Assembly (NCBI GenBank): GCA_041082215.1
Contig: JBDOIF010000093.1
Coordinates: 5,504 to 69,503, forward strand
Reading direction: 5' to 3'
DNA from: Anaerolineae bacterium
GTDB taxonomy: Bacteria > Chloroflexota > Anaerolineae > B4-G1 > DUEL01
Length of the DNA stretch: 64,000 bases
Shown here: positions 6,666 to 47,754 of the stretch, one piece after another
Layout: each line of letters begins with the position of its first letter
How positions within the stretch are numbered: position 1 is the first letter of the stretch
Program-made: the position numbers and the translations under genes
The notes under the pieces: generated by a model
Told to the model about the DNA's origin: nothing
Database searches by the model: none
What the model saw: only the letters and a program-made list of their open reading frames with translations

Positions 6666-7012
6666 ACGTTTTTCCAATGTTCTACCAGCCGCCGGATGCG
6701 GATGCGCTGGGCACGGAGCCAGCGGCGGGGACCCAGGATCGCCCGCCCGAACTCCGGTGGGCGGTCCGGCAATCGCCTCAACTTTCCCTCCGCAACCAGC
6801 CGCTCCCAGAAAGTGAAAAACCGCGCCTCCAGCTCCTGATCGCTGAACTCCTCCCCGCGCTCGTACACCTCTCTGGCCAACTGCTCGATGTAAGCGGCCG
6901 TCTCTTCGATCAACGTCTCCACCGGCTCAAAAACCACCCCCCACCCGTAGACGGGGTCCAGAGGCATCGAGCCGAACTCCATTGGGGAAGGAGGGCGAAG
7001 CTTCTCTTCCAC
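6662..7012 (-). CDS. hypothetical protein (116 aa)
   Basis: Intact ORF in a coding-dense context with no recognisable family. The start may be the internal MEFGSM. Confidence 0.45.
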   Translation of the reverse strand: MEEKLRPPSPMEFGSMPLDPVYGWGVVFEPVETLIEETAAYIEQLAREVYERGEEFSDQELEARFFTFWERLVAEGKLRRLPDRPPEFGRAILGPRRWLRAQRIRIRRLVEHWKNV

Positions 7013-7035
7013 AGGGCCTCCTCTCTAAGCGCTGC

Positions 7036-7644
7036 TCACCTTTCCTGAACCCATCGCCGCAACAGGGGGAGAGCTGCCTGAACCGCCCGCGCGCGGTGGC
7101 TGATCCGATTCTTCATCTCGGCGGACAGCTCGGCCATCGTACAGCCCATCTCCGGCAGGTAGAAGACGGGGTCGTAGCCGAACCCTCCCTCCCCCGCCGG
7201 CGCGGTGGCGATAACCCCCTCGCAGACCCCCTCGGTGGTGTGGAACTCTCCCTCGGGGGTCACAATGGCCAGCACACACCGGAAGCGGGCGGTGCGCTGT
7301 TCCCAGGGGACCCCGTCGAGATGCTTCAGGAGGGTGGCGAACCGCTCGGCGTCGGTGCCGAAGGTGTAGCGAGCAGAGCGGATGCCGGGAGCCCCGTCCA
7401 GCGCATCCACCTCCAGGCCGGAATCGTCGGCCAGCACGACGGCCTGCACCCCCCGTTCCCGGAGCGCCTGAGCGTAAGCCAGGGCCTTGATGCGGGCATT
7501 CTCGGCGTAGCTCGCCCCGTCCTCGGCCACCTCCACCTGTAGCCCCAGGTCCGGTGGAAAGAGGGGTCGGGCCGGGAGGGATGCCAGCAGCGCCCGATAC
7601 TCCCGTATCTTACCCGCATTCCGTGTGGCTACGAAAAGCTCCAC
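7036..7644 (-). CDS. rdgB: dITP/XTP pyrophosphatase (Ham1/RdgB family)
   Basis: The sequence runs from MELFVATRNAGKIREY to FGYDPVFY, with the conserved Ham1 motifs. Confidence 0.9.
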   Translation of the reverse strand: MELFVATRNAGKIREYRALLASLPARPLFPPDLGLQVEVAEDGASYAENARIKALAYAQALRERGVQAVVLADDSGLEVDALDGAPGIRSARYTFGTDAERFATLLKHLDGVPWEQRTARFRCVLAIVTPEGEFHTTEGVCEGVIATAPAGEGGFGYDPVFYLPEMGCTMAELSAEMKNRISHRARAVQAALPLLRRWVQER

Positions 7645-7671: not shown

Positions 7672-10020
7672 CTACCCCCCCGCCTCCATCTCCACCTCCG
7701 GCAGCTCCTCCACCGACACCTCCGCCCCGCAATTGGTGCAGCGGGCCGTCCCCTTCCGTCCTTCGGTGAGCAGGCCGCCGCAGACCGGGCAGGGCTGGGG
7801 CAGTGGCCGCTGCCACACCCAGAAGCCGCACTCCGGGTAGTTGGCGCAGCCGTAGCCGACCCTCCCCTTGCGGGTCCGCTTCTCCACCAGGTCGCCGCCG
7901 CACTGAGGGCATCTGGCCCCCACCTTCTCCAGCCACGGCTCGGTGTAGCGGCATTCGGGGAACCCCTTGCAGCCGATGAACTTGCCGTACCGCCCCCAAC
8001 GGACGATCAGGGGCCTGCCGCACTTGGGGCAGTTCCGGCCGACCTCCTCCGGCCCCAGGTCCGCTTTCTCGATCCCCTGGTCGGCTGCATCCAGCCGCTG
8101 CTTGAATGGGACCCAGAACTCCTGCACCACTGGAACCCATTTCCTCTCCCCCGAGGCGATCTCGTCCAGCCGCGCCTCCATCTCGGCGGTGAACCCGTAA
8201 TCCATCACCTCCGGGAAGTGCTCCACCAGGAGGTCGTTGACCAGGAAGCCGGTCTCCGTGGGCACCAGCCGTCTCCCGTCGCGGCGGACGTACCCCCGCT
8301 GCTGGATGGTGGAGAGGATAGGTGCATAGGTGGAGGGACGGCCGATGCCGTACTCCTCCAGCGCCCGTATCAGCGTCGCCTCCGTATAGCGGGGCGGCGG
8401 TTGGGTGAAGTGCTGTTCGGGAATCAACCGCACCAGGTCCAGCAGCTCATCCACTTTCAACGGCGGGATCTGCTGTGTCTTCTCCTCCTCGGCATCCTCG
8501 TCGGCGGCCTCCTCATAGACCATCAGGAAGCCAGGGAAGCGGAGCGTGGAGCCGGTGGCGCGGAACAGGTAGGGACGGTCTTCCGCCATCCCATCGGGTC
8601 CTGCCGCCACCTCCACAGTGACCGTATCGTAGACCGCCGGTTCCATCTGGCTGGCCAGGAACCGCTGCCAGATGAGCCGGTAGAGCCGGTACTGATCGCG
8701 GCTCAGGTGCTCCCTGATCGCCTCCGGCTCGCGGAAGACAGAGGTGGGGCGGATCGCCTCGTGGGCCTCCTGCGCGCCCTTCGCCCGGGTCCTGTACACG
8801 GGCGGCCTGGGGGGCATGAACTTCTCACCATACCGCTGTGCGATGTACGCCCGGGCCTCCGCCTGCGCCTGTTCGGCCACGTTGGTCGAGTCGGTGCGCA
8901 TATAGGTGATGAGGCCCACCGGCCCGCTCCCCTCCAGATCAACCCCCTCGTAGAGCTGCTGGGCGATGCGCATCGTGCGGCCAGGGGTAAAGCCCAGCCG
9001 ACGGGAGGCCTCCTGCTGCATGGTGCTGGTGATGAAGGGCGGGGAAGGGCTTCGCCGCCGTTGCCCCTTCTTGACCGAAGAGACCACGTAGGTGGACCGC
9101 TCCAGCTCCTCCACCACTGCCCGGGTGGCAGGCTCATCCTTCAGGTTCACCTCCTCACCCCGGATACGGTGAAGCCGGGCCAGAAAGGTGCGGCGCGGGC
9201 CTAGACTAGCGCTACGCTTGGCCAGCTCCGCCTCGATGGACCAGTACTCCTCCGGCACGAAGCCCAGGATCTCCCGCTCCCGCTCCACCACCAGGCGGAC
9301 CGCCACCGACTGGACCCGCCCGGCGCTGAGCCGGCTTCGCACCTTCCGCCAGAGGAGGGGACTCAGACTGTAACCCACCAGCCGGTCCAGAACGCGGCGG
9401 GCCTGCTGGGCGTTCACCAGGTCCATGTTGATCTTGCCCGGGTGGGAGAAGGCCTCCTCGATGGCGTCGCGGGTGATCTCGTGGAAGACCACGCGTCGGA
9501 CCTGAGAGGGTTTGATCCCGACCGCCTCGATCAGATGCCAGGCGATCGCCTCCCCCTCCCGGTCCGGGTCGGTGGCCAGGTAGACCTCGGCCGCCTTGCT
9601 GACCTCTTCCTGGAGCTCTTTCACCACCTCCCGCTTTTCGTTGGGTACCCGGTAGTGGGGCTTGAAGTTGTCCTCCACATCCACCGACATCGAAGAGCGG
9701 AGCAGGTCCCGCACATGACCCACTGAGGCGCGAACAATGTAGCCCTTACCCAGAAAGCGGCCCACGGTGCGGGCCTTGGCCGGGGATTCGACGATCACCA
9801 GACGTCCGTCCTTCCTGGGCGGGGGCGGGGGGTCCACCCCCTCGTGGGCTGGCGTGGCTCCCATCCGGAACAGAGTCGTCCCACAGACCGGGCAGGTTCC
9901 CCGGACAGCCGGCCGCCCCGCAGCAGTGAAGACCGGCTCGGGGTCTTTCAACGGCCGCTTCGCTTTACAGCGCACACAGTAGGCCTCCAGAACAGTATCG
10001 GTTTGGTTGGTCATTCGCAA
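7672..10020 (-). CDS. topA: DNA topoisomerase I with three C-terminal zinc ribbons and an extra N-terminal C4 zinc ribbon
   Basis: Toprim domain (LVIVESPAKARTVGRFLG) and the catalytic region are present. Three CxxC...CxxC modules lie at the C-terminus. An N-terminal CVRC...CPVC ribbon precedes the Toprim domain. Confidence 0.92.
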   Translation of the reverse strand: MRMTNQTDTVLEAYCVRCKAKRPLKDPEPVFTAAGRPAVRGTCPVCGTTLFRMGATPAHEGVDPPPPPRKDGRLVIVESPAKARTVGRFLGKGYIVRASVGHVRDLLRSSMSVDVEDNFKPHYRVPNEKREVVKELQEEVSKAAEVYLATDPDREGEAIAWHLIEAVGIKPSQVRRVVFHEITRDAIEEAFSHPGKINMDLVNAQQARRVLDRLVGYSLSPLLWRKVRSRLSAGRVQSVAVRLVVEREREILGFVPEEYWSIEAELAKRSASLGPRRTFLARLHRIRGEEVNLKDEPATRAVVEELERSTYVVSSVKKGQRRRSPSPPFITSTMQQEASRRLGFTPGRTMRIAQQLYEGVDLEGSGPVGLITYMRTDSTNVAEQAQAEARAYIAQRYGEKFMPPRPPVYRTRAKGAQEAHEAIRPTSVFREPEAIREHLSRDQYRLYRLIWQRFLASQMEPAVYDTVTVEVAAGPDGMAEDRPYLFRATGSTLRFPGFLMVYEEAADEDAEEEKTQQIPPLKVDELLDLVRLIPEQHFTQPPPRYTEATLIRALEEYGIGRPSTYAPILSTIQQRGYVRRDGRRLVPTETGFLVNDLLVEHFPEVMDYGFTAEMEARLDEIASGERKWVPVVQEFWVPFKQRLDAADQGIEKADLGPEEVGRNCPKCGRPLIVRWGRYGKFIGCKGFPECRYTEPWLEKVGARCPQCGGDLVEKRTRKGRVGYGCANYPECGFWVWQRPLPQPCPVCGGLLTEGRKGTARCTNCGAEVSVEELPEVEMEAGG

Positions 10021-10067
10021 AAAGCCTCCTGAGAAAAGGGCCGCAGGGCGCAGGGGGCAGGGAGCGT

Positions 10068-10490
10068 CTACACACCCGCTGCAGTTCTCAAGCGCTTCCA
10101 GAGAGTCGCTACATCGGGGCCCAACCAGGTCGCCCAGCGGTCAATATAGGGAAAGTCAAAAGTTGAAGTCCACTCCGGTTCCTCGTTCAGGCGTACAACA
10201 ACCAGAATGTCCCGAATATCCTGCTCGTGTTTGAACAAGCGGCCCTCGTTCCATGCCATCAATTTGCCGACCACAATATCCTCGGGGCGCGCAAACCATG
10301 CCCCAATCACCCTGTCTCCAACCTGTATTGTACGTCGAATGCGCCGCTTCAGCGCAAAACCGTATCCTGGCTCCATCGTAGTGGGGATCAAGTCCACCTT
10401 GCGCCCCGCAGTAGTATCAATAACGTTGAACATGATGCCCAGGCGGATAGATTCTCGCATCTGGTAAGGGTCGGCATAGAACCGGGGCAA
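10068..10490 (-). CDS. hypothetical protein (140 aa)
   Basis: Intact ORF in tandem with the small upstream ORF at 10539..10739. No family recognised. Confidence 0.4.
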   Translation of the reverse strand: MPRFYADPYQMRESIRLGIMFNVIDTTAGRKVDLIPTTMEPGYGFALKRRIRRTIQVGDRVIGAWFARPEDIVVGKLMAWNEGRLFKHEQDIRDILVVVRLNEEPEWTSTFDFPYIDRWATWLGPDVATLWKRLRTAAGV

Positions 10491-10538
10491 TGGATAAGCG
10501 GCCGCTGAAGGATGTCCAGATATAATTCAAAATGGGCC

Positions 10539-10739
10539 TCATCCGCCATGCTGCAATCTCTCAAACATGAGAATGGTGAGTTCAAAATCGGATAACTGCG
10601 GATAGGCACGGCGCAGGCGGACCCGGACGGTATCGAGCCAGAGCGCCTGCAATTCCATCAGGGTACGGAGCCGCCGAGCAGGTGGTAGACGCATCAGCAG
10701 GCGAATCTGCTCTTCATCGGCAGGTCCCAGTACTCTCAC
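10539..10739 (-). CDS. hypothetical small protein (66 aa)
   Basis: Intact ORF upstream of, and co-oriented with, 10068..10490. Confidence 0.3.
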   Translation of the reverse strand: MRVLGPADEEQIRLLMRLPPARRLRTLMELQALWLDTVRVRLRRAYPQLSDFELTILMFERLQHGG

Positions 10740-10751
10740 GGAATTCCTCCA

Positions 10752-11825
10752 CTACAGCACTCCGTTCCTTCCCATCTCCCGCAGCCGCTGTACGATCTCC
10801 CGGACGTCCTGTTCCCGTTCGATGGGACAGACCAGGAGGGCGTCGTCGGTGTCCACGATGACCATCCCCTCCAGGCCGATGGTAGCGATCAGCCGGCGAC
10901 CACCGAAGACGACCGTGTTACGGGTATCCAGCCCCAGGTGCTCACCGACCACCACGTTCCCCTCCTCATCGGCGGGCAGGATTTCCCGCATGCTCGACCA
11001 GTTCCCCACATCCGACCAGCCGATGTCCACCGGTATCACCACCACATCCTCCGCCCCTTCCATCACCCCATAGTCAATGGTCTGGGGCGTCACTTCGGGC
11101 CAGACCCGCCGGAGGGTGGTCTGGTAGGCGGATGTGCCCAGCGTGGCCTCGATCTGGGCAAGCTGGGCGTAGAAATCGGGCATCTGCCGGGCAAATTCCT
11201 CCATAATCCGGTCCACCCGCCAGATGAACATCCCGCTGTTCCACGAATATTCGCCCGATTGGACCATATGGAAGGCGGTTTCAGCGCTGGGTTTTTCCGT
11301 GAACCGCTCGGCGCGGAAGACGGGGAAGCCCTCCACCACATCCAGTTGCTCCCCCTGCTTGATGTAGCCGAAGCCGGTGGAGGGGAAAGCGGGGGTGATC
11401 CCCAGGGTCACCAGATGGCCTCGTTCGGCGACGATGGCAGCGGCGGGGAGCACCCGTCGGAACTGCTCCACATCCTGGATAAAGTGGTCGGCGGTGAGGA
11501 CAGCCATCACCGCCTCCGGGTCGCGCCGCTTGAGGTGGACCGCCCCCAGGCCAATGGCGGGGGCCGTCCCCCGCCCCACCGGTTCGACGATGAAGTTCTC
11601 CCTGGGTAGCTCCGGCGCCTGAAACATCAGCTCCTCCAGGTGGTCTGCCCCGGTGACGACGTAGACCTCATCTGGCTGAAAGACCGGGGCGATGCGGTCC
11701 ACAGCGTGCTCGAACATCGTCCGCTCGTCCACCAGCTTGAGAGCCTGTTTGGGCCTGGCCTGGCGACTGAGCGGCCACAGGCGGGTTCCCCCACCGCCAG
11801 CCATGATCAGAGCGTAAAAAGCCAT
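10752..11825 (-). CDS. mannose-1-phosphate guanylyltransferase (GDP-mannose pyrophosphorylase)
   Basis: MAFYALIMAGGGGTRLWPLS nucleotidyltransferase signature with the left-handed beta-helix C-terminal region of ManC-type enzymes. Confidence 0.8.
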   Translation of the reverse strand: MAFYALIMAGGGGTRLWPLSRQARPKQALKLVDERTMFEHAVDRIAPVFQPDEVYVVTGADHLEELMFQAPELPRENFIVEPVGRGTAPAIGLGAVHLKRRDPEAVMAVLTADHFIQDVEQFRRVLPAAAIVAERGHLVTLGITPAFPSTGFGYIKQGEQLDVVEGFPVFRAERFTEKPSAETAFHMVQSGEYSWNSGMFIWRVDRIMEEFARQMPDFYAQLAQIEATLGTSAYQTTLRRVWPEVTPQTIDYGVMEGAEDVVVIPVDIGWSDVGNWSSMREILPADEEGNVVVGEHLGLDTRNTVVFGGRRLIATIGLEGMVIVDTDDALLVCPIEREQDVREIVQRLREMGRNGVL

Positions 11826-24504: not shown

Positions 24505-24700
24505 CGACAACTGAATACGGCCTCGACAGAGGTGCCCCAAAGCCCGGATGTGAGGGGCACAAAGGGGGAAGACCGGTTCAAGTCCGGCGCTGTCCCGCAA
24601 CTGTAGGGACACGATTTGTCCGTGTCCAAGCCAGGATACCCGCCTCTGTCGGCGCCCACGCAACCTTCGCGGAAAGGGGGTGGCGCATGAAGGGCAAACA
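24505..24700 (+). promoter_or_regulatory. cobalamin (B12) riboswitch aptamer
   Basis: GGTGCCCC...AAGGGGGAAGACCGGTTCAAGTCCGGCGCTGTCCCGCAACTGTAGGGAC matches the conserved B12-element core (AAGGGAA-GGTGnAAnTCC...GCTGcCCCCGCAACTGTAA). Confidence 0.85.
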
Positions 24701-26772: not shown

Positions 26773-27569
26773 AACTCCGAAGCGCGATCTCCGGTTCCAT
26801 CTACGGGCTGAGTGCCGTCCTCGGCATCCTGGCCTTTCTGTACCCCTTCTTCCTCCACAGCCAGACGGCGGCTGCCGTAGGGCTGGCCCACAGCCAGGAC
26901 GCGCCGCTGGTGACGACGATGCTGGTGGGGCTTTCGCTGCTGGCCCTGCTGGTGGAAATGGAAGGGGAAGCGCTCAGCGCCAAGACGGTTGCCCTGCTGG
27001 GTGTGCTGGTCGCTCTCACCAGCGCCCTGCGCTTCCTGGAGGTCGCTTTCCCGATGCCCGGCGGCTTTTCCCCCATCTTCGCCTTCATCATCCTCGCTGG
27101 CTATGTCTTCGGCGGGCGGTTCGGCTTCCTGATGGGCGTGTTTACCCTGCTCGCCTCCGCCCTGATCACCGGAGGGGTAGGCCCCTGGCTTCCCTACCAG
27201 ATGTTCACTGCCGGCTGGGTCGGCCTCACGGCCGGCTGGCTCCCACGCAAAACCCAGCACACGACGCGCTCCATCCTCCTTCTCTCTATCTTCGCCTTCG
27301 CCTGGGGCTTTCTTTACGGCGCGGTGATGAACCTCTACTTCTGGCCTTTCGCCGTGGGGCCGGCCGGGCAGAGCTGGCAACCAGGCATCGGGCTGAAGGA
27401 GACCCTGGCCCGTTACGCCGCCTTCTACATCGTCACTTCGCTGGGATGGGACCTGATGCGGGCATTGGGGAACTTCGCCCTGATCCTGCTCCTGGGAGCG
27501 CCGGTGGTCCGGGTGTTCACCCGCTTCCGGCACCGCTTTCACTTCGAACTGGAGGCCAGCAATGGTTGA
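26769..27569 (+). CDS. polytopic membrane protein, probable ECF-type substrate-capture (S) component
   Basis: 267 aa with about 7 TM helices. It lies directly upstream of, and overlaps, the EcfT-A-A' fusion, and sits in the B12 riboswitch operon. Confidence 0.55.
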
Positions 27570-30330
27570 TGTGCGGGCCTGGCTTCTCTGGGCGCTGACG
27601 GGGACGGTGATCGCCTCCTCCACCCGCAACCCCCTCTATCTCTTCCTTCTGGTGCTGACGATCGCGGTGGTGGGCGCGGCCCGGCCATCCGGCTCCAGGC
27701 GGAAGCAGGCCCTATCCTCCCTCCGCTTTACAGCGGCAGCCGTCCCTCTGGCCGCCCTGTTCAACGGCCTGACCGCCCACATCGGCGATACGGTCCTTTT
27801 CCACCTGCCTGCCCGACTCCTGCTGATCGGCGGGCCGGTGACGGCGGAAGCCCTCATCTATGGGGCGATCAGCGGCCTCACACTGACCACAATTCTGAGC
27901 GCTTTCGCCGTCTTCAACCAGGTGACGCCGGTTCACGAACTGGTGGGCCTCACCCCACGCGCCCTGCACGAGACCGGCATCATCCTCTCCATCGCCCTCA
28001 CCTTCATCCCCCAGACGGGCCGCAGCCTGACCCGTATCCGGGAGGCCCAGGCTGTGCGCGGCCACCGCCTGCGGGGACTTCGCGGCTGGCTCCCTATCCT
28101 CATTCCCCTCCTGGTGAGCGGGATGGAACAGTCTATGGGGCTGGCCGAGGCGATGGTCGCCCGCGGGTACGGCTCCGTTTCGGACCGGGACCATTCCACC
28201 CGCACACGGGGGCTGCTGGCCCTGGGACTGCTCGGCGTGCTCGGGGGGTGGCTGGGGATGCTTTTCCTCCCTGCCTGGAAGTATGCTGCGCTGGTCGGGT
28301 TGCTGGCCGGCGGCCTTCTCGTCATCAGCGCACTGTGGCTGGCAGGACGGGCCGCTCCACGGACCGCTTACCGCCCCAGGCGGTGGACCCCTCAGAGCAC
28401 GCTGGTCGTTCTGGGCTGTGGGGCGGCGCTGGCTGCGGTCCTGTTGCCCTGGCCCGGAGCCGAAACGGCAGCCTATACACCCTACCCCAGCCTCACCCTC
28501 CCCCCCTTCGACCCGGCTGTCGGGCTGGGCCTGCTGGGGCTGCTGATGCCAGCACTGGCTGCAGAACGGCGACCTGCACGAGAGGAGGCCCGGGGACCGG
28601 TCCGTTCCTGCGCTCCTGTGACCTCATCCCCTTCTCCTGCGAGGAAAGGGGGAGGGAACGGGGATAAGGTCTCCAGACCCCTATCAGATGCCCCCTTCAT
28701 CCAGTTCAGCCGGTTCACCTATACTTACCCCCAGGCCCTCCACCCTGCCCTCTCCGGGGTGAACCTCCGCATTGAGGAAGGGGAATTCGTGCTGGTGACC
28801 GGCGTCTCCGGTGCAGGCAAGTCCACCCTGCTGCGGGCCCTCAACGGCCTGGTTCCCCACTTCAGCGGGGGGAAGGTGCAGGGCCACGTCTCCGTCGCCG
28901 GGCACAGCCCCGCCGTAGAAGGGCCGCAGGTGCTCAGCCGGGTCGTCGGCTTCGTCTTTCAGGACCCCGAGGCCCAGTTCGTCGTGGATCGGGTGGAGGA
29001 CGAGATCGCCTTTGCGCTGGAGAACCTGGCCCTCCCCCCTGCCCAGATGCGCCTGCGGGTGGAGGAGGTGATGGACCTCCTGGGGCTTACCCCACTGCGG
29101 GATCGGCCGCTGGAGAGCCTCTCCGGAGGGGAGAAGCAACGGGTCGCCATCGGCGCAGCCCTGGCCCTCCGCCCCCGCGTCCTCGTCCTGGACGAACCCA
29201 CCTCCCAGCTCGACCCCTGGTCGGCCGACGAGGTGTTGCAGGCCCTGGTGCGCCTGAACCGGGAGCTGGGCCTCACCGTTATCCTGGCCGAACACCGGCT
29301 GGAGCGAGTCCTCCCCTACGCGGACCGGCTGGTCTACCTGCCGGCCCCCTCGGAGGGGAGGCGGCGGAACGGGCGGGTGCTGAGCGGCCCACCCCGCCAG
29401 GTCCTTCCCCGGATGGAGCTGACGCCGCCGCTGGTCACCCTGGGCAAGGCTCTGGGCTGGGACCCGCTCCCCATTACCCTGGAGGAAGCGCCAGCGACCA
29501 GCGGCGAGCTACGGACAACCAGTAACCAGCAACCAGCAACGAGCTACAGGCAACCGGCAACCCTTCTCCGCATACGGGGGCTTTCTTTCAGCTACGGGGC
29601 CACCCCAGCCCTGCGCGGTGTGGACCTGGAGGTGGGGATGGGAGAGCTGGTGGCATTGATGGGGCGCAACGGCTCCGGCAAGACCACGCTGCTGCGATGC
29701 GTCGTGGGGCTGCTGCACCCTTCAGGGGGAGAGATCGAACTGGAAGGTCGCTCTCTTGTGGGGCTGGACCCGACCCGCATTTGTCGGCAGGTGGGGTATC
29801 TGCCCCAGGAGCCGGACGATCTGCTCTTTGCCGAGACGGTGGCAGAGGAACTGGCCGTCACCCTGCGCAACCACGGCCTTCTCGACCGCCCGCCTATCTC
29901 CCCTGCTACCCTGCTGGAGCGCCTGGGGCTGGGGGGTGTGGCGACGGCCTACCCGCGCGACCTGAGCGTTGGCCAGCGGCAGCGGGTAGCGCTGGGGGCG
30001 GTCACCGTCACCCGGCCCCGGCTCCTGCTCCTGGACGAGCCAACGCGGGGGATGGACTACCTCGCCAAGCAGGGACTGGTCCGCCTGCTCCGGGAATGGC
30101 AGGCGGAGGGGGTCGGTGTCCTGCTGGTGACCCACGATGTGGAGCTGGCAGCTCAGGCAGCGGACCGCGTGGTGGTGCTGGACCAGGGGGAGGTGGTCGC
30201 AGCGGGCCCCCCATCGGAAGTGCTTTCCGGCCCCTCCCTTTTCGCCCCCCAGATCGCCCGGCTCTTTCCGGGCACGGGCTGGCTGACCGTCGAGGAGGCG
30301 CTGGCAGGGCTGGCTAGGGGGAGTGGATGA
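27562..30330 (+). CDS. triple fusion EcfT-EcfA-EcfA' (ECF transporter T component fused to two ABC ATPase domains), 922 aa
   Basis: An N-terminal CbiQ/EcfT membrane domain of about 230 aa is followed by a Pro-rich linker. NBD1 carries [17 protein letters not shown] and VLDEPTS. NBD2 carries [17 protein letters not shown] and LLDEPT. Confidence 0.85.
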
Positions 30331-40214: not shown

Positions 40215-40535
40215 ATGAGCGATCAACCGCCAGGTGCAAGGGAGTTCAAAATCGAGTTTCCCCCCGACCTCCAGGCGCTGTACGCTAACTTCGCCATCAT
40301 CACCCACTCCCCCTCCGAGTTCATCATAGACTTCGCCCAGGTGCTCCCCAACACGCCGAAGGCGCGGGTGGGCATCCGCATCGTCACCACCCCCACCCAC
40401 GCCAAGCTCCTCCTCCAGGCCCTGCAACGGAACCTGGAACGGTACGAGTCCCGATTTGGGGAGATCCGTATGCCCTCCGCCGGGGACGAGCTGGTCAGGC
40501 AGTTCTTCGGCGGGGTGACGCCGCCAGAGGAGTGA
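40215..40535 (+). CDS. DUF3467-like small protein
   Basis: FKIEFPPDLQALYANFAIITHSPSEFIIDFAQVLP pattern typical of that family. Confidence 0.55.
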   Translation: MSDQPPGAREFKIEFPPDLQALYANFAIITHSPSEFIIDFAQVLPNTPKARVGIRIVTTPTHAKLLLQALQRNLERYESRFGEIRMPSAGDELVRQFFGGVTPPEE

Positions 40536-40542
40536 GGGGAAA

Positions 40543-41187
40543 ATGGACGAGCTGGAAGCGATCGCCGAACGGATCCGGGCGGACCTCACGGCCCGGGACG
40601 AAGCACGGGAGGCCGCCCTCCACCGCTCCCGCGAGCTGATCCGCCTCTGCGCCACCGCCATCCGATCGGCCCACCGGGAGGAGTGGGACTCCGCCCACAA
40701 CCTGCTGGCCCAGGCGGATCGGGTGGCCGCGGAGATGGCGACTCTGCTGGAACCTTATCCGGACCTCTTCTTTTCCGGCTACACGCAGGATGGGTTGAAA
40801 GAACTGGCAGAGGCCCATCTGACTGTGGCGCTGATGACTGAAAAGCCGCTACCGGACCCCGATTCCCTGCGGCTCCCTTCCGCCACCTATCTGGGCGGCC
40901 TGTGCGAGGCGGCGTCCGAGCTCCGCCGCCGCTGTCTGAACCTGTTGCGCAGCGGACGGACGGAGGAGGCGGAGCGGCTGCTGGCAGCGATGGACGAGAT
41001 CTACGATCTTCTGGTCACCTTCGACTTTCCCGACGCGGTCACCGGCGGCCTTCGCCACCGGGTGGATAGTCTGCGGGGTGTGCTGGAGCGGACACAGGGA
41101 GACATGACCCAGGCACTGCGGCAGGAGCGGCTGATGGCGGCGCTGCATCGGTTCGAGGAGCGGTTGGGTGATGCAGGAGAACACTGA
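40543..41187 (+). CDS. hypothetical protein, all-helical (translin-like?)
   Basis: 214-aa helical ORF. The family assignment is tentative. Confidence 0.45.
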   Translation: MDELEAIAERIRADLTARDEAREAALHRSRELIRLCATAIRSAHREEWDSAHNLLAQADRVAAEMATLLEPYPDLFFSGYTQDGLKELAEAHLTVALMTEKPLPDPDSLRLPSATYLGGLCEAASELRRRCLNLLRSGRTEEAERLLAAMDEIYDLLVTFDFPDAVTGGLRHRVDSLRGVLERTQGDMTQALRQERLMAALHRFEERLGDAGEH

Positions 41188-41434
41188 CCGGATCATCCGC
41201 GCCAGCGAGATCGGCCAGTACACCTTCTGCGCCCGCGCCTGGTGGCTGGGCACGGTCGAAGGGCGGCCTTCTACCCACCAGCAGGAGATGGCAGCGGGGG
41301 ATATGGCCCACCGTCAGCACGGCAGACGGGTGCGGGCTTCGGCGATGCTGGCCCGCCTGGCCTATCTGCTCCTGGCCCTGGCGGCCCTGGCGGCGGCCGT
41401 CGCGCTGCTGCGTGCGCTGGGGGCAGGCGGGTGA
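41168..41434 (+). CDS. N-terminal fragment/partner of a Cas4-like PD-(D/E)xK nuclease (N-terminal Cys motif + hydrophobic segment)
   Basis: IRASEIGQYTFCARAWWL resembles the DUF83/Cas4 N-terminal Cys motif. A hydrophobic helix follows, then a stop that overlaps the next ATG (TGATG). Confidence 0.45.
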   Translation: MMQENTDRIIRASEIGQYTFCARAWWLGTVEGRPSTHQQEMAAGDMAHRQHGRRVRASAMLARLAYLLLALAALAAAVALLRALGAGG

Positions 41435-41955
41435 TGAACTGGACCGGCCTCTTCATCACCCTGTTGATCCTGGGGCTGGTCCTTCTCTGGCTGGCCCGCC
41501 GGTCCCGCGCCCGCACCGGGCTGCCCCCGGGCCGGATCGTCGCCGCCGACGTGGGCTCCTGGCAGCGGCTGGACCACCCCCTCTTTTCCCGGCGCCACCG
41601 GCTTGCAGGCCGGCCCGATTACATCGTCGCCGACGGGCCGGACCTGATCCCGGTGGAGGTCAAATCGGCCCGCGCCCCCGTCCACCCCTACAATTCCCAC
41701 GTCCTCCAACTGGCGGCCTACTGCCTGCTCGTCGCCGAAACGTCGGGGCGGCGGCCCCCCTACGGCATCCTCCGCTACGCCGACCAGACCTTCCAGATCC
41801 CCTACACTCGCGAGCTGGAGGAGGAGCTGCTGGCAGTACTGGAGGAGATGCGGGCAGGCCTGGCGGAAGGGGAGGCGCGGAGGAACCACAACGATACCCG
41901 CAGGTGTGCGGCCTGCGGGTATCGAGAGGTATGTGAGGAAGCTCTATCTCCCTGA
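41434..41955 (+). CDS. Cas4-like/DUF83 PD-(D/E)xK nuclease core with C-terminal CxxCxxxxxC cluster, preceded by a TM helix
   Basis: RPDYIVADGPDLIPVEVKSARAP (D...ExK) and QLAAYCLL (QxxxY) are present, and the C-terminus ends in RRCAACGYREVCEE. Confidence 0.6.
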   Translation: MNWTGLFITLLILGLVLLWLARRSRARTGLPPGRIVAADVGSWQRLDHPLFSRRHRLAGRPDYIVADGPDLIPVEVKSARAPVHPYNSHVLQLAAYCLLVAETSGRRPPYGILRYADQTFQIPYTRELEEELLAVLEEMRAGLAEGEARRNHNDTRRCAACGYREVCEEALSP

Positions 41956-41967
41956 ACGGCCTGTCCG

Positions 41968-43197
41968 TCAACCGGGGAGAGGTTCGCCGAAAAGCTCGTC
42001 CGCCCGGGCCAGCAGCTCCGCCCTCCGGTCCGGCTCCGTTCCCTTTGTCTCCAGATACCGCTCCAGAAGCTGCCGTGGGGTCATCTCTTCCGGGGAAAGA
42101 TTCCCCAGCCGCACCCGCGCCTCCCGCTCCACCTCCCGGGTGATGGAGCCGACGAAAGCGGCATCCGTCAGCAACGAACGGATATCCTGATCCCGTACCA
42201 GCGGCTCCTGATCGGCCCGCAGATGGAGGATCACCCGCACAACCGCATCCCTCAGGTCGTGGGCCGCCACTGCCCTCCGGAGCGCCGCCAGCGGGTCTTC
42301 GGCCCTCCGCAGGTCCGCCCTCACGGTGACAAAGGGGCGGGCGTCCACCTCAACGAACTTCCACACGGCTTCCCCCCGGGCCAGCTCCACCCAGCAGAAC
42401 CCCTTAGGCTCTCCCTCCTCGCCGAAGTCAACCCGCTCCAGGCTGCCGGCGTAGACGACAGGGGGGTGCCCTCCGCCGTTGAGGCTCTGATGCTTGTGGA
42501 TGTGGCCCAGAGCGACGTAATCCCAGGCCGGGTCGGCAAGCACAGAGCCCAGGACCACCGCGTCCCGCCCGATCATCACGCTCCGCTCCGAGCCATAGGT
42601 CGCACCGGAGACAGTGAGGTGGGCTGCCAGCACAGCGGGGATCTCTGGCTCAAGCCCGGCTGCCAGCGCCTGGATGTTCCCCGTGACGATGCGCTGGAGC
42701 TCCTGATCCAGTTGTTCGATGGAGAGGCCCCGGAACTGGTCGTGGGCCAGGAGGCGCTGGCGAGCCGGATAAGGGACGGTGGCAACCTGAACCGGGCCGT
42801 GGTGGGTCTCGATCCGGTGCACCTCTTCTTCCCGCCCCACAATGACGTTCGGCACGCCCAGGGTGTGGAAAATGTCTATGCTGGAAGCTCTCTGGACCAC
42901 TGCGGGCAGGTCGTGGTTGCCCACCAGGAGGAGGACAGGGATCCCGGCATCGGCGAGCCGCTTGACGCGGCGGGCGAAGGCCCGCTGATAAGTGGGGTTG
43001 GGGTCACGGGTTTTGTAGGCGTCGCCGGCAAAAAGCACCAGGTCCGCCTCATGCTCCAGCGCATACTCGACCAGCTCGTCAAAGCGACGGAGGAAGTCGA
43101 GCACCCGCTGATTCACCCCCGTGGTCGGGTCCAGGCGGCCGTAGTTTTCCATGCCGATGTGGAGATCGGCGAAGTGGAGGATCCGAATCCGGTTCAT
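41968..43197 (-). CDS. sbcD: Mre11/SbcD-family DNA repair nuclease
   Basis: Calcineurin-like phosphoesterase motifs (HFADLHIG, GDAYK, GNHDLP, GHIHK) are present. Confidence 0.85.
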   Translation of the reverse strand: MNRIRILHFADLHIGMENYGRLDPTTGVNQRVLDFLRRFDELVEYALEHEADLVLFAGDAYKTRDPNPTYQRAFARRVKRLADAGIPVLLLVGNHDLPAVVQRASSIDIFHTLGVPNVIVGREEEVHRIETHHGPVQVATVPYPARQRLLAHDQFRGLSIEQLDQELQRIVTGNIQALAAGLEPEIPAVLAAHLTVSGATYGSERSVMIGRDAVVLGSVLADPAWDYVALGHIHKHQSLNGGGHPPVVYAGSLERVDFGEEGEPKGFCWVELARGEAVWKFVEVDARPFVTVRADLRRAEDPLAALRRAVAAHDLRDAVVRVILHLRADQEPLVRDQDIRSLLTDAAFVGSITREVEREARVRLGNLSPEEMTPRQLLERYLETKGTEPDRRAELLARADELFGEPLPG

Positions 43198-43293
43198 AGG
43201 GACAGCTCCCGCAGTAAACAGACGTGAGGTGTTCCCCTCAGCCTGTGTACCAACCCTTCGTCGGTTGTGATGAAGTCGGCGCCGCGCTCCGTT

Positions 43294-44982
43294 CTAGATG
43301 CCTTCCGACTCGTCCTCCCCCCTCAACACCGCCCGGCCCCGGGCCAGCACCGCCTCCGGTTCCTCCTCCCGCACCCCCATCTCGGCGTAGAACTCGGGGG
43401 TACCATAGGTGCGGGTGCGGACCACCACCGGCATCGGTACGGCGTGGCCCAATACCAGTGCCTGCTGGCGGGTATCCAGCCGGGCCAGCACCTCCCGCAG
43501 CGGCTGGCTTCCGGCGATGCCGGAGAAGACCGCCCGGATGTCCGCCTCGTCGTCCAGGAGGCAGGTGACGCGGGTGCCGATCTGGCTCATCACCTCCGGG
43601 TCAATGCCGCTGGGCCGCTGGTCCACGATGAGCAGGGTGACGTTGTACTTGCGCAGCTCCCGGGCGATGGTGCCGAAGATGGTGTGGCGGGCAACGGCGG
43701 GGTCGAGGAACTTGTGGGCCTCCTCGACGGTGATGATCAGCGGGCGCGGCTCCTCCCCACCCCTGCCCAGCGCCGCCTCCTTACGCTCCACATAATGGGC
43801 GTGGATACGGCGGGTGATGTAGTTGGCCGCCAGGATGTAGGCCTCGAGGCTGTTGCCGAACCGCCCGAACTCCAGCACCACACTGATCCCCCGGTCCAGG
43901 TACTTCAGAATCTGGCTCACGGGGTCCTCCTCCACTTTCGGCTGGAGAAACTCGAAGCGGCGGAACATCCCCAACTTGCGCTGGATCGCCCCCAGGGTCC
44001 CACCGTGGAGTGTGCCCCGCTCCAGCGCCTCGTCCAGGTCCTCCAGCCGGTCCTCCTCATTCAGCAGCCGGGCGATCCATCCCGGCCCCAGCCTGCGGCG
44101 GAGGAAGTAGAGGGCGCCCACCTGCACGTCGGTGAGATCCATCAGCCCGGAGAGGCTGTCCACGTCCTCCGGCTCGATCTGGTCGTACCCGATGCGGACG
44201 ACGCCGTCCACCTTGCTGCCGCGCCGACGGGAGGAGTCCGGGTCGAGGGTGAAGACGGAGACCTCGCCGGTGGGGAAGAGCTGGCGAAGCCCTTTGATCT
44301 CCCGCCGGGCCTCGTCCTGGCTCTTCCAGCCGTACTCGTTGTGCATGTCGAAGATCAGGTTGACCGCCACCCGCTGGTGGATGATGCCAGCCAGCAGGAG
44401 GCGGGTGAGGAAGGTCTTGCCGGTGCCGGTCTTGCCGAAGACCCCCGCCGACCGTTCGACGAAGCGGTTGAGGTCGAGCGCCACGTGGACCCCCTCCATT
44501 TCCAGCGGGTCGCCGATGTAGAAGTAGCCCGGCCGGCTCTCCTGGCCGAAGATGAGGGCCACGTCCTCCTCGCTGGCAGTGTAGACGGGGGCGAAGTGGG
44601 CGGGGATGGTTTTGACCGGCTTCGGCTCGTCGCTCCCTTCCTCCACCATCAGCATCGGCGCGACGTGGATGCGGCCGAAGGTGGAGGTGCCCTCGTGAAC
44701 CCGGGCGATGAAGGGGTCGGATACATCGGGCGGGGTCTTCTCGATGAAGGGGTTGGTGGCATCCAGGGCCACGTCGTTGATGATGGAAAAGAACCGGCGG
44801 CCGGAGCGGCCGTGGATAACCACATACCGTCCCACCGCCAGCCCCTCGATCTGGGTCTGGGGGTCGAGTTTCACTTCCAGCCCCCTGGAAAGGCTCCCCC
44901 CCACGACGATGCCCAGCCGCTGGGCAGGGGCAGGCTCAGGGGCGCGAGGGAACCATCGGTCCAGCTCTTCTGAATGGGCCAT
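43294..44982 (-). CDS. herA: HerA-like ATPase/helicase (DUF87, FtsK-HerA superfamily) with N-terminal HAS-barrel
   Basis: An N-terminal barrel region (LGIVVGGSLSRGLEVKL...VGRYVVIHG) is followed by a Walker A motif (GKTGTGKTFL), the helical insert and a Walker B motif (LLIVDQ). Confidence 0.8.
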   Translation of the reverse strand: MAHSEELDRWFPRAPEPAPAQRLGIVVGGSLSRGLEVKLDPQTQIEGLAVGRYVVIHGRSGRRFFSIINDVALDATNPFIEKTPPDVSDPFIARVHEGTSTFGRIHVAPMLMVEEGSDEPKPVKTIPAHFAPVYTASEEDVALIFGQESRPGYFYIGDPLEMEGVHVALDLNRFVERSAGVFGKTGTGKTFLTRLLLAGIIHQRVAVNLIFDMHNEYGWKSQDEARREIKGLRQLFPTGEVSVFTLDPDSSRRRGSKVDGVVRIGYDQIEPEDVDSLSGLMDLTDVQVGALYFLRRRLGPGWIARLLNEEDRLEDLDEALERGTLHGGTLGAIQRKLGMFRRFEFLQPKVEEDPVSQILKYLDRGISVVLEFGRFGNSLEAYILAANYITRRIHAHYVERKEAALGRGGEEPRPLIITVEEAHKFLDPAVARHTIFGTIARELRKYNVTLLIVDQRPSGIDPEVMSQIGTRVTCLLDDEADIRAVFSGIAGSQPLREVLARLDTRQQALVLGHAVPMPVVVRTRTYGTPEFYAEMGVREEEPEAVLARGRAVLRGEDESEGI

Positions 44983-44985
44983 CGG

Positions 44986-45426
44986 TCACTTCTCCTCCAA
45001 TACGCCCAGGCGCTTCAGGTAGGCAGCGATATACCTGGCGAACTCCCGGAAGTCGGCACTTCCGTGTTGGAGGTGCTCATAGACCTTTTCCGGGTCCACC
45101 CGGAGATATTCATGCACCAGGATGTTTCGGAAGCCAACGATAGGAGCCAACCGGTGGGCAAAGTCCTCAGGAAGCACGCCTGCCTTTCCCAGAGCCTCGA
45201 TCGCCTCCCGGTAGTCCTGAATACGGTATGAGAAATCAGCAGTGATGATGTGTACGGCGATGTCTGCTATAGCCTGCGCCCCAAGCTGAAGGCTGTGCTG
45301 GATCGCGCGGTACTTCACGAAATCAGAAAGGATATCCGCGAAGGAGAAGGCACGGTAATGGTCCAATTCGGCGGCATAAGCCTCCAGGGCCTCCAACCGC
45401 TCCAGCACGGTCTCTTTATCTACCAT
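44986..45426 (-). CDS. hepT: HepT-like (DUF86) nucleotidyltransferase-substrate-binding toxin
   Basis: RNILVHEY (Rx4HxY) motif. It overlaps the upstream MNT gene by 11 nt. Confidence 0.8.
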   Translation of the reverse strand: MVDKETVLERLEALEAYAAELDHYRAFSFADILSDFVKYRAIQHSLQLGAQAIADIAVHIITADFSYRIQDYREAIEALGKAGVLPEDFAHRLAPIVGFRNILVHEYLRVDPEKVYEHLQHGSADFREFARYIAAYLKRLGVLEEK

Positions 45427-45859
45427 CGGCTCCTCCGGCCAGCAGACGCTGAAGAAGATACTTCTCCTTTATCCGGCGCAATGGTTTCGTGTCTATGTAA
45501 TCCCTGATCGCTCTCACCTCAAACCGCTCACGGGTTACCGGGTCCCGGCAGTGTAACAATCGTCCGTCCCGGTACACCCGGTGGCGAAGGAGAGGGGAGG
45601 CGTCGGCCAGATCGGCCACATAGACGTCGTCCCTATTGAACAGGCCGACGAGTTCTCCGATGAGCGCCAGGAGCCGATCGAACCGCTCCCCCTCCGGCAC
45701 GTCCGGGCCGAAGAGCACGGCGATGTCCACATCGGAGAGGGGGCCGGCATCGCCGCGGGCCTGGGAGCCGTAGAGGTAGGCCAGCACGACCCCGTACCGC
45801 TCGAAGATGGACCGCAGCCGCTCCTCATAGGGGCCCAAATCGCCCAGCGGGCCGCTCAT
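45416..45859 (-). CDS. mntA: MNT-type nucleotidyltransferase antitoxin
   Basis: YLYGSQARGDAGPLSDVDIAVLF is the GSx9-13DxD NTase motif. Confidence 0.8.
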   Translation of the reverse strand: MSGPLGDLGPYEERLRSIFERYGVVLAYLYGSQARGDAGPLSDVDIAVLFGPDVPEGERFDRLLALIGELVGLFNRDDVYVADLADASPLLRHRVYRDGRLLHCRDPVTRERFEVRAIRDYIDTKPLRRIKEKYLLQRLLAGGADGR

Positions 45860-46467
45860 CCCAGCCCCTCCCTCAACCTGCGGAGCAGCCCATCCAGCCG
45901 CAAGAGGTCGCCTGCCAGCAGCCGGGCCAGCTCCCGCCCTGCCTCAACCAGGAAATCCGCCCGCTCCTGTGGAGGGCGGGCTGCCGCCGCCACCCGGAGG
46001 CTGGTCGCCAGAAGCTCATCGGCGGGGATGCCGGGGGCGTCCAGCACCAGCCGGAAGTAATCGAACCGCTGGGTGAAGGACACCACCTCGTCGGGGCTGC
46101 ACTGGTAGAGAACATCCATCATCACTGGCGGCTGAGGGGGGATGCGGTGGAAAATGCGGTCCCCCTCCCGATACCCCACCGCCAGCACGCCCACCTCGAT
46201 GGGCACCTGCCGGTTGAACCGCTGGTCGAGGACGGCCTCCTCCTCTGGCGATTCGAGCAGCGCCAGATGGCGCATCATCAGGTCGTCCTCCACCGCCACA
46301 TCGTAGATCAGGCCGTAGACAAAGGTCCCCTGGGCGTGGCCTCTGGCCCGCACGAACGAGCCGAAGGCGGGGATATCGGGCTGCATCACCCGGCAGCCGA
46401 CGACGAACCCCTGGTTGGAGACCCGCATCACACGTCCGACCGGAATGGTAGTGTTGCCCATTACCAT
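45856..46467 (-). CDS. hypothetical protein with HAS-barrel-like N-terminus
   Basis: IPVGRVMRVSNQGFVVGCRV...GSFVRARG...GLIYDV resembles the N-terminal barrel of HerA-family proteins. It is translationally coupled to nurA upstream and MNT downstream. Confidence 0.4.
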   Translation of the reverse strand: MVMGNTTIPVGRVMRVSNQGFVVGCRVMQPDIPAFGSFVRARGHAQGTFVYGLIYDVAVEDDLMMRHLALLESPEEEAVLDQRFNRQVPIEVGVLAVGYREGDRIFHRIPPQPPVMMDVLYQCSPDEVVSFTQRFDYFRLVLDAPGIPADELLATSLRVAAAARPPQERADFLVEAGRELARLLAGDLLRLDGLLRRLREGLG

Positions 46468-47639
46468 CTCCCTCCGGTGAACTCGATCCTCCGCCTCCCC
46501 CCCCGGGTCAGCCGCTTGTAGTGGGCCTTGGGGGAGAGCGCGGCGGGAAGGCCAGCGGAAAGCAGGGCTGCCTCGATCATCTCCTCCAGCCGCTCCCGCT
46601 CCGGCCCGCTGATGTAGGCCAGCTCGTCGGCGCGGGCCAGCACGTAGGGGAAGCCGCCGGCAATACGGCTCTGGGCCACCACCCCGCCGTGCACCAGCGC
46701 CAGCAGGTCGGGCGTCTCCGCCGCCCAGCGGGGCAGCTCCACCCGGGCGATCACCGGCTCCTCCCCCTCCGAAGCAACGTTCAGGTAGAAGAACAGGACC
46801 TCATGCCCGTGCTCCCGATAGGTCTGATTGACGGAGCCGGGGGCGGCGAAGAGGGCTGAACGGGCCCCCGGCGGGAGAAAGGAGAAGATCGCCCGGTCCG
46901 GCACCCGCTCCAGCGGGTTGGGCTCCGCGTCCGCCCGCTCCTTCCTGCCGTCACAGAGGGCAAGGTGGAGAAGCAGGCCGACCTCGGCGGAGCGAGGGCG
47001 ACTGGTAAAGGCGGCCAGCGCCGCTCCCCTGCGCCGGATACGGTCCATTTCATCCAGATAAGACCGGATATGCCTGGCCCTGGATTCGGAGGGAAGGTCC
47101 TCCAGCACCCAGAGCAGGAGCGTGCCGTCTATCAGAGCCAGCACAGGCCCTTCCCCTGCCGCCTCGACCCGGTCGGCCAGATGGGCGATCTCCGCCCGGT
47201 CCCGCCGCACGTCCAGGAGGTTGCCCTGGACCAGCAACCGCCCTTCGTAGAGGTCTTTTTCTTCATAAAAGAGGTGAGGGACAGAACGGGGTTCGGGGGT
47301 TTCGCCGCTTCCGTGCCGGTAGGCCAGGCTGCCGACGTTGATCACGTAGTAGAGGGCAACTCCGTGCCGGTCCGGCCCGATCTGGGAGCCATCGGCGCCG
47401 ATGGCGGTGAACCGCTCCGGCAGAGGGGGGAGGGAGAACACACCGTTGAGCGGCTCGTGGGCAGGGACGGCGGCTCCCACTTCGGCGGCAGCGGCCTGCA
47501 GCCCGGTCCCCCGGTCGGCAAACTGGTCCAGCCAGGCGCGGGCTTTTGCCACCAGCTGGCCGAAGTCTTCCTGCTGGCGGGCCAGCGCCTGGCCCATCTC
47601 CTGCACCCTCTGCACCAGTTGGCTCAGCCCCAGCGTCAC
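46461..47639 (-). CDS. nurA: NurA-like 5'-3' nuclease
   Basis: RNase H-like fold with the FTAIGADGSQIGP motif (NurA IDGS). It is co-oriented with herA and mre11. Confidence 0.65.
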   Translation of the reverse strand: MTLGLSQLVQRVQEMGQALARQQEDFGQLVAKARAWLDQFADRGTGLQAAAAEVGAAVPAHEPLNGVFSLPPLPERFTAIGADGSQIGPDRHGVALYYVINVGSLAYRHGSGETPEPRSVPHLFYEEKDLYEGRLLVQGNLLDVRRDRAEIAHLADRVEAAGEGPVLALIDGTLLLWVLEDLPSESRARHIRSYLDEMDRIRRRGAALAAFTSRPRSAEVGLLLHLALCDGRKERADAEPNPLERVPDRAIFSFLPPGARSALFAAPGSVNQTYREHGHEVLFFYLNVASEGEEPVIARVELPRWAAETPDLLALVHGGVVAQSRIAGGFPYVLARADELAYISGPERERLEEMIEAALLSAGLPAALSPKAHYKRLTRGGRRRIEFTGGRW

Positions 47640-47725
47640 CTCTTCCCCCTTCCAGGTCCATTATACTTTGAGACGGGGGGAGGGGCAAGGGAGAGGGTGA
47701 GTGGGTGACTGGATGACTGGACGGC

Positions 47726-47754
47726 TTGACAAATTGGAGAAGTGGGTGTATACT
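47726..47754 (+). promoter_or_regulatory. consensus sigma70 promoter TTGACA-17-TATACT
   Basis: ttgacaaattggagaagtgggtgtatact, 40 bp upstream of the fmdB start. Confidence 0.7.

Follow-up and report, generated by a model that had tools for sequence, protein, structure and literature searches.

A NurA–HerA–SbcD cluster of Anaerolineae with a stand-alone HAS-barrel protein and an MntA–HepT pair: a probable operon for resection of DNA ends

Genes of the cluster

Archaea resect DNA ends mainly with the HerA–NurA machine, whose bacterial counterparts are poorly understood. The stretch of DNA analysed here (the window; 64 kb of contig JBDOIF010000093.1, assembly GCA_041082215.1) comes from an Anaerolineae (Chloroflexota) bacterium, and the closest database relatives of its HerA protein are likewise annotated as Anaerolineae or Chloroflexota. 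Six co-directional open reading frames (ORFs) on the minus strand, spanning 41968–47639, encode in this order a NurA-family nuclease (nurA), a small protein referred to here as P203, the antitoxin and the toxin of a predicted type VII toxin–antitoxin (TA) pair (mntA and hepT), a HerA/FtsK-family translocase (herA) and a bacterial Mre11-type nuclease (sbcD). By analogy with characterized complexes, and with a probability put at about 0.68, the locus is interpreted below as a housekeeping operon that would resect double-strand DNA ends, with P203 as a probable subunit and the TA pair as a resident. The identities given to all six genes in the original prediction, which had been made from the sequence without database searches, proved correct in profile searches and, for P203 (described there as HAS-barrel-like), by fold.

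The genes are tightly packed. The nurA/P203, P203/mntA and mntA/hepT junctions are overlaps of 1–11 nt (4 nt at P203/mntA and 11 nt at mntA/hepT) and 3 nt separate hepT from herA; the earlier description of the genes as start/stop-overlapping thus holds for four of the five junctions, counting the 3-nt gap, but not for herA/sbcD, where a 96-nt spacer with a weak hairpin (43198–43293, minus strand; hairpin at 43225–43240) forms the only junction of the cluster without overlap or near-overlap. The order nurA–P203–mntA–hepT–herA is repeated in three independent Logan assemblies from other sequencing runs and is therefore not an assembly artefact.

NurA (46461–47639, minus strand, 392 aa) matches PF09376 with 77.5 bits against a cut-off of 21, over 250 of the 254 model positions, so that an assignment first made from a motif, seen here as AIGADGSQ, is borne out by a hidden Markov model score well above the curated threshold. 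The protein carries a helical N-terminal extension of ~75 aa, and five acidic or histidine residues (D83 of ADGSQ, E150, D171, H317 and E339), probably equivalent to the catalytic residues of the RNase H-like core in solved structures, are invariant in 13 orthologues. Neither the NurA protein nor the NurA profile gave a sequence match to any solved NurA in the PDB.

HerA (43294–44982, minus strand, 562 aa) matches PF01935 with 105.9 bits and has the make-up of a hexameric DNA translocase of the HerA/FtsK family: a central DUF87 ATPase domain, a Walker A motif (GVFGKTGTGKT, G183–K189), a Walker B motif (E420–E421), and an N-terminal HAS barrel that scores 22.5 bits, just under the cut-off of 25.2 (E = 1.2e-4). 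GKTGTGKT and EEAH are invariant in the orthologue alignment. The top 120 database matches are 78–100% identical to the window's protein, and relatives are encoded in at least 574 stretches of species-representative genomes, the best 80 of which are 60–85% identical and come almost entirely from metagenome-assembled genomes (MAGs) of Anaerolineae. Matches to HerA equivalog models reach 60–84 bits against cut-offs of 800–970, with only the C-terminal ~120 residues aligned, and the protein falls short both of the archaeal double-strand-break repair equivalogs (NF040937 and NF040819, 65–74 bits versus 800–970) and of the anti-phage equivalogs (NF042943 and NF042944, at best 84 bits versus 800). 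Against the PDB the HerA profile scores 96 bits for Sir2-HerA, 92 for Sulfolobus HerA, 77 for Thermococcus HerA and 73, 69 and 65 for DUF4297-HerA, with no match to Deinococcus HerA at E ≤ 0.01. Judged by these comparisons, NurA and HerA of Anaerolineae form a sequence lineage of their own.

SbcD (41968–43197, minus strand, 409 aa) is a nuclease of the bacterial Mre11 type, matching TIGR00619 with 149.4 bits versus a cut-off of 77.65 and Metallophos with 57 bits; archaeal Mre11 equivalogs give 62–83 bits versus cut-offs of 500–600. In the alignment D11, H13, D59, N94, H95, H193, H232 and H234, which make up the DxH, GD, GNHD, H and GHxH phosphoesterase motifs, are invariant. Inspection of the ORFs and tblastn with Anaerolineae SbcC proteins, which matched nothing, agree with the earlier statement that Mre11 is present without SbcC/Rad50 in the 64-kb window, where the only ORFs of more than 600 aa encode topoisomerase I and a fusion of CbiQ with two ATP-binding cassette (ABC) domains. 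In Mre11/SbcD structures the Rad50/SbcC-binding region lies in the C-terminal part. Since the C-terminal helix pair of SbcD is no less conserved where sbcC is not adjacent than where it is, this region appears to be maintained, which suggests that sbcC is still encoded elsewhere in this genome.

P203 (45856–46467, minus strand; 203 aa, or 201 aa with the start at 46461 that gene callers choose) is a divergent HAS-barrel protein that stands alone and ends in a tail of four helices. The window's protein matches no Pfam family above threshold and the HAS-barrel family (PF09378) with only 13.5 bits. An AlphaFold2 model built from a 33-sequence alignment (pLDDT, the predicted local distance difference test, 81; pTM, the predicted template modelling score, 0.78) has an N-terminal beta-barrel with a two-helix insertion, followed by the tail, and the top 50 Foldseek matches of this model in the PDB are all HerA chains, taken from archaeal repair as well as anti-phage complexes (E down to 1e-5, 125–161 columns), the correspondence being to the HerA N-terminal barrel. 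Among family members PF09378 is the only recurrent match (24 of 33 below threshold, best E = 4e-4), and one member, P0382, exceeds the threshold (27.1 versus 25.2 bits). Alignment of P203 with the HerA of its own operon by hhalign is not significant (probability 4.7%), the sole segment found lying inside the HerA HAS-barrel, and the P203 profile has no sequence matches in the PDB. The model together with the recurrent PF09378 matches supports P203 as a divergent HAS-barrel, the sequence-level link being faint but consistent. The family comprises ~760 clusters at 50% identity among 1.84 billion representatives; nearly all members are ~190–210 aa long and stand-alone, most come from Chloroflexota, and those that are named are called hypothetical. 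P203 is thus a real, conserved family without annotation and the new element of the locus; a literature search found no paper describing a stand-alone HAS-barrel partner.

The two genes between P203 and herA encode an adenylyltransferase antitoxin and a HEPN RNase toxin. MntA (45416–45859, minus strand) contains GSQARG...DVDIAV, matches NF047752 with 94.9 bits versus a cut-off of 60, and also matches PF18765/PF01909; HepT (44986–45426, minus strand) contains the Rx4HxY motif as RNILVHEY and matches NF047751 with 108 bits versus 60 and PF01934 with 95 bits. With both equivalogs above cut-off, overlapping genes and the catalytic motifs in place, mntA–hepT is predicted to be an intact type VII TA pair. 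No repeats flank the cassette in the window.

Linkage and inheritance in related genomes

Related loci (numbered with the prefix L) were collected around HerA, giving 81 distinct loci. In 44 of these the gene immediately before herA is P203, and wherever sequence is available (42 of 42 loci) nurA precedes P203; P203 followed every nurA found in this survey. A metagenome survey centred on P203 showed nurA as its direct upstream neighbour in 39 of 51 loci and herA downstream in 19 of 35. Divergence of the partners tracks that of HerA (Spearman rho 0.74 for P203, 0.86 for SbcD and 0.47 for NurA), which fits co-inheritance. HerA is 60–88% identical across Anaerolineae and the partners co-diverge with it. 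The genes that flank the cluster encode thioredoxin, thioredoxin reductase, a glutaredoxin-like protein, a CsoR-family repressor, an ABC ATPase and GNAT enzymes; they serve redox and transport functions, and none of them is a defence gene. All this gives the cluster the look of a housekeeping module passed on by vertical descent, as opposed to an uncommon acquisition from archaea or an island of defence genes. The uniform G+C content of the window (~65%) and the class-wide conservation led to rejection of horizontal transfer from archaea as the origin of the locus. Neither the rarity that the original prediction gave for bacterial HerA/NurA pairs nor the archaeal style that it saw in the cluster applies to this lineage, given the number of HerA-encoding stretches, the failure of the archaeal equivalogs and the bacterial SbcD.

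Linkage is variable. herA is alone in 19 of the HerA-centred loci that have enough upstream sequence, and the arrangement of the genes changes even between the closest relatives: with HerA 88% identical, L086 and L087 have only herA–sbcD and L088 has herA alone. One Anaerolineae clade of the herA-alone type (L032, L036, L040, L041, L044, L045, L047, L048, L050 and L051; HerA 64–67% identical to that of the window) shares a synteny of its own, with anti-sigma-like and lipoprotein genes upstream and a conserved gene for a ~200-aa protein with the pattern MEQ..FE.Q.RL..FPP downstream, and has no nurA or P203 within 10 kb of herA (at about 10001–11600 in most). P203 in turn occurs by itself in Thermoflexales-like loci (L090, L108, L110, L119, L120 and L122), where a protein ~65% identical to the window's P203 (at about 7001–7550 or at another position) has glmS-like, rtcA-like, RNase Z-like or major facilitator superfamily genes as neighbours and both nurA and herA are absent within 7 kb; loss of linkage thus does not entail loss of P203. 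Two apparent NurA–P203 fusion proteins, P0382 and P0369, were considered as Rosetta-stone evidence and set aside as probable frameshift artefacts: of the loci concerned (L169, 3450–5167, and L170, 3–1308), one is a long-read contig of 2x coverage and the other has a fragmented nurA.

The position of sbcC in relatives clarifies the status of sbcD. An sbcC gene of ~700–880 codons directly follows the orthologous sbcD in L018, L021, L069, L070, L076, L080 and L084, and in L018, L021, L070 and L076 the sbcD–sbcC pair follows herA; in 14 HerA-centred loci sbcD is found no more than 10 kb downstream of herA, and it is adjacent to herA in L005 and L053. By this synteny the window's sbcD is probably the canonical sbcD of a bacterial sbcDC pair, with its sbcC unlinked. 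Adjacency of sbcC was lost in a subclade comprising the window, L001, L005, L006, L009, L012 and L086, which is a lineage-specific unlinking. All four functions of the archaeal herA–mre11–rad50–nurA operon are found together, along with P203, in L084 and L021; the window holds three of the four. L084 (GCA_030445865.1, 4797–12097, 60% G+C), where nurA–P203–herA–sbcD–sbcC form a tight operon, is a MAG labelled Clostridia bacterium, which may reflect transfer out of Chloroflexota or a problem of binning or labelling. In L026 (4799–6880) sbcC starts ~680 nt after herA and tblastn finds no full sbcD between them, perhaps because sbcD was lost or truncated. The NurA–HerA(–SbcDC) end-processing module is class-wide, and the window shows a derived state of it, with sbcC unlinked and a resident TA pair.

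The junction between P203 and herA is where the cassettes vary. The gap measures at most 105 nt in 24 of the HerA-centred loci and at least 500 nt in 14, and the long gaps hold a nucleotidyltransferase of ~263 aa (six loci), MNT plus HEPN pairs, an MNT–HEPN fusion, DUF4258 plus MqsA-like pairs or a PD-(D/E)XK protein. Although the original prediction read the six genes together, mntA–hepT is better described as a candidate type VII TA cassette at a junction that in relatives holds varied TA-like cassettes or nothing. Orthologues of the window's pair lie directly 5' of herA in L009, L058, L092, L095, L106, L111, L114 and L140; L121 keeps HepT only, and in L001 MntA is truncated. The GSx..DxD motif of MntA is invariant in nine orthologues and the Rx4HxY motif of HepT is intact in eight of ten, with decay in L058 and L121, a pattern typical of a selfish resident. 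Because the orthologues are 56–71% (MntA) and 45–64% (HepT) identical, similar to NurA and P203 in the same loci, the pair appears to have entered the ancestor of this subclade and then to have been inherited with the operon.

Small TA-like genes, recognized by eye, also occur at the herA|sbcD and sbcD|sbcC junctions of relatives, among them pairs of a DUF433-like with a PIN-like gene and a RelB/DinJ-like gene (L055, 11693–12350; L063, 5013–5324; L018, 8694–8957 and 5888–6448; L001, 17027–17823; L009, 12472–12873), and the pair in L001 is called MNT/HEPN by precomputed Pfam annotation. Every junction of the cluster seems to tolerate such cassettes.

A consensus scan for promoters found two sites in comparison with 0.5 expected: a promoter-like TTGCCC-17-TATAAT (47660–47688, minus strand) ~20 nt upstream of the nurA start, and a divergent promoter-like site (47726–47754, plus strand) that would serve the Zn-ribbon/CsoR neighbours. 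On the other side of the cluster, the gene downstream of sbcD is convergent and Cas4-like, as had been proposed, matching TIGR00372 with 69.1 bits versus 65. It looks split into two ORFs (41168–41434 and 41434–41955, both plus strand) that overlap in an ATGA and are thereby coupled in translation; of these, the first (88 aa) has an N-terminal Cys segment, ASEIGQYTFCARAWWL, read by eye and without an HMM (hidden Markov model) match, followed by a hydrophobic helix, and the second (173 aa) has a hydrophobic helix followed by the Cas4/PD-(D/E)XK core with a C-terminal Cys cluster, to which the TIGR00372 match belongs. Membership of this gene in the cluster was rejected, as it is carried by 0 of the first 83 comparison loci (L001–L083). 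Between the Cas4-like and thioredoxin genes lie a bacterial Translin-family gene (40543–41187, plus strand; PF01997, 29 bits versus 25.9) and an adjoining DUF3467 gene (40215–40535, plus strand). Elsewhere in the window are a cobalamin riboswitch (24513–24661, plus strand; RF00174, 75.8 bits) and, ~3 kb downstream of it, a 922-aa ORF that fuses a CbiQ-type energy-coupling factor transmembrane component to two ABC ATPase domains (27562–30330, plus strand), as well as a topoisomerase I with an N-terminal DUF5679 zinc ribbon and extra C-terminal zinc ribbons (7672–10020, minus strand).

Function of the locus

The original reading of the cluster as one for DNA-end processing holds. By analogy with the archaeal and Deinococcus complexes, HerA would be a ring ATPase that threads duplex DNA, and a NurA dimer seated on its HAS-barrel face would digest the strands; SbcD would open or clean blocked ends in partnership with an SbcC whose gene would lie elsewhere in the genome. 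The mntA–hepT pair, inserted at the P203|herA junction in the ancestor of the subclade and presumably co-transcribed, would be kept mainly through addiction and would be no part of repair. The HAS-barrel ring is the NurA docking surface in Sulfolobus and Deinococcus (PMC9960219; PMC3326311), and because P203 is translationally coupled to nurA and represents a free copy of this docking domain, it is probably a third subunit of the NurA–HerA machine, which most likely acts as adaptor or regulator where NurA meets HerA, or possibly forms a bridge to SbcCD. A stronger form of this proposal, held only tentatively, makes P203 an obligatory subunit of a three-component resection machine and MntA–HepT perhaps, in addition, a co-opted stress switch for herA–sbcD. 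P203 could then form a barrel ring of its own or cap NurA, and NurA could dock on HerA through P203 or stay inactive until docking; P203 might also link the motor to SbcCD.

Several observations weigh against the resection operon as proposed. SbcC was not found in the 64-kb window, and linkage is loose, with herA alone in 19 loci, the closest relatives carrying only herA–sbcD or herA, and P203 standing alone in the Thermoflexales-like subset. The apparent NurA–P203 fusions are probably frameshift artefacts, and the physical partners of P203 are putative. Long vertical retention of an intact TA pair is also compatible with a co-opted function. Finally, scores of the HerA profile are about the same for HerAs of archaeal repair (92 and 77 bits) as for those of anti-phage systems (96 and 73 bits); since the HerA sequence favours neither clade, the repair reading rests on context, conservation and synteny with sbcDC.

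Alternatively, the locus may be read as an anti-phage or anti-plasmid defence system, in which the HerA ring would activate or feed a NurA effector as in Sir2-HerA or DUF4297-HerA, with HepT–MntA acting in abortive infection and the Cas4-like protein as a helper. The best, though partial, HerA matches are the anti-phage HerA models of PADLOC and NCBIfam (117 and 84 bits) and the best PDB sequence match is the Sir2-associated HerA; MntA matches a candidate system (PDC-S09) in PADLOC, TA cassettes cluster at the junctions of the locus in many genomes, and NACHT and AAA_16 genes lie near the L001 locus. Such a role is nevertheless very unlikely. Searches with PADLOC-DB 2.0 returned only the generic HerA models and the MNT candidate and no complete system; no matches were obtained for NurA, P203, HepT or SbcD, and no effector partner of HerA, Sir2 and DUF4297 included, was found. 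The anti-phage equivalog reaches about a tenth of its 800-bit cut-off, the Cas4-like gene is absent from the first 83 comparison loci (L001–L083), and the window contains no CRISPR-like tandem-repeat array. Defence genes, moreover, do not behave like a HerA that is conserved class-wide, apparently by vertical descent, and accompanied by co-diverging partners. The cluster is also syntenic with canonical sbcDC and flanked by housekeeping genes.

Two further explanations were considered. According to one, MntA–HepT has been co-opted so that the HepT RNase or adenylylation by MntA gates the downstream herA–sbcD genes under stress, and the six genes form one unit. The seamless embedding of the pair by its two overlaps and 3-nt gap, its position always directly 5' of herA (10 loci), its retention while NurA falls to 54–63% identity, the mostly intact catalytic motifs and the recurrence of several nucleotidyltransferase families at the P203|herA junction all agree with this, but most of the family has no insert there, the inserts that do occur belong to unrelated cassette types (DUF4258/MqsA-like and PD-(D/E)XK included), the toxin motif has decayed in two relatives and MntA is truncated in a third, and TA-like pairs at the other two junctions fit tolerated insertion sites; co-option is accordingly considered unlikely. 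According to the other, HerA, with NurA and P203, mainly pumps DNA in these filamentous bacteria for another purpose, for example septal chromosome clearance or segregation, or DNA export or import, and resection is secondary. A relationship between FtsK and HerA was reportedly described by Iyer et al. in 2004. DNA pumping has been proposed for the FtsK–HerA superfamily and shown for the HerA-like TdtA of Thermus (PMC5365140), and a role independent of NurA is suggested by the much stronger conservation of HerA (60–88%) than of NurA (33–63%) and by the frequent occurrence of HerA alone in other conserved synteny. The recurrent linkage to sbcD and sbcC, the invariant catalytic residues of NurA and the lack of membrane or secretion partners in the cluster make this explanation rather improbable.

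If the locus is a resection operon, the class-wide and strongly conserved HerA, together with NurA, SbcD/SbcC and a HAS-barrel partner, would indicate that the pathway has an extensive and so far unstudied branch in bacteria, and a three-component machine, if true, would be a new architecture for the HerA–NurA family. MntA–HepT would offer a clean natural case of a TA pair as a long-term resident of a housekeeping operon, which is relevant to the persistence of these cassettes. P203 merits definition as a family in annotation, and a HerA match alone should not label such loci as defence.

Comparison with known systems

Bacterial NurA–HerA is known from Deinococcus and Thermus; a literature search found no paper linking NurA or HerA to Chloroflexota. 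The pair of Deinococcus radiodurans (DR_0836/DR_0837; PDB 7WRW, 7WRX and 7F6D; PMC9960219) is, like the window's, encoded by a bacterial operon with nurA before herA; its HerA combines a HAS-barrel with a RecA-like core and a helix bundle, and the complex, in which the NurA dimer is seated on the HAS-barrel side of HerA, resects DNA ends (PMC9960219). Unlike the window, the D. radiodurans operon has no embedded TA pair and no linkage to sbcD. To our knowledge, no P203-like gene has been described in Deinococcus NurA–HerA. The absence of a match of the window's HerA profile to D. radiodurans HerA at E ≤ 0.01, and of the NurA profile to any solved NurA, sets the two lineages apart.

A bacterial nurA–herA–sbcD–sbcC cluster already noted in Oceanithermus profundus (PMC5448004), in which the HerA/NurA pair is followed by SbcD and SbcC, matches L084, L021 and L018, and the window except for sbcC. 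The window differs from it in that lack, in having P203 between nurA and herA, in the added TA pair and in phylum. The archaeal herA–mre11–rad50–nurA operon was reportedly described by Constantinesco et al. in 2004. It unites the same four enzymatic functions in one locus (PMC2288612; PMC3326311), and the HerA–Mre11 adjacency without SbcC in the window, L005, L053 and L086 echoes the reported archaeal interaction of HerA with Mre11. Gene order in the window is different, however, the nuclease is a bacterial SbcD that passes TIGR00619, the HerA equivalogs fail and there is an extra HAS-barrel gene.

The HepT–MntA pair resembles type VII systems (NF047751/NF047752) in the order of antitoxin before toxin, in the overlap and in its intact motifs, and differs in being embedded in a putative DNA-repair operon with which it appears to have been vertically inherited across a subclade. 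The anti-phage Sir2-HerA and DUF4297-HerA complexes (PDB 8wiv, 8j4u, 8ziq and 9c1m) have a HerA ring with the partner on the N-terminal barrel face, and no structures match the P203 model better than the N-termini of their HerA chains. In contrast to these systems, the window encodes no Sir2 or DUF4297 effector, its cluster lies in a housekeeping context with vertical-looking inheritance, and P203 carries the barrel without an ATPase domain.

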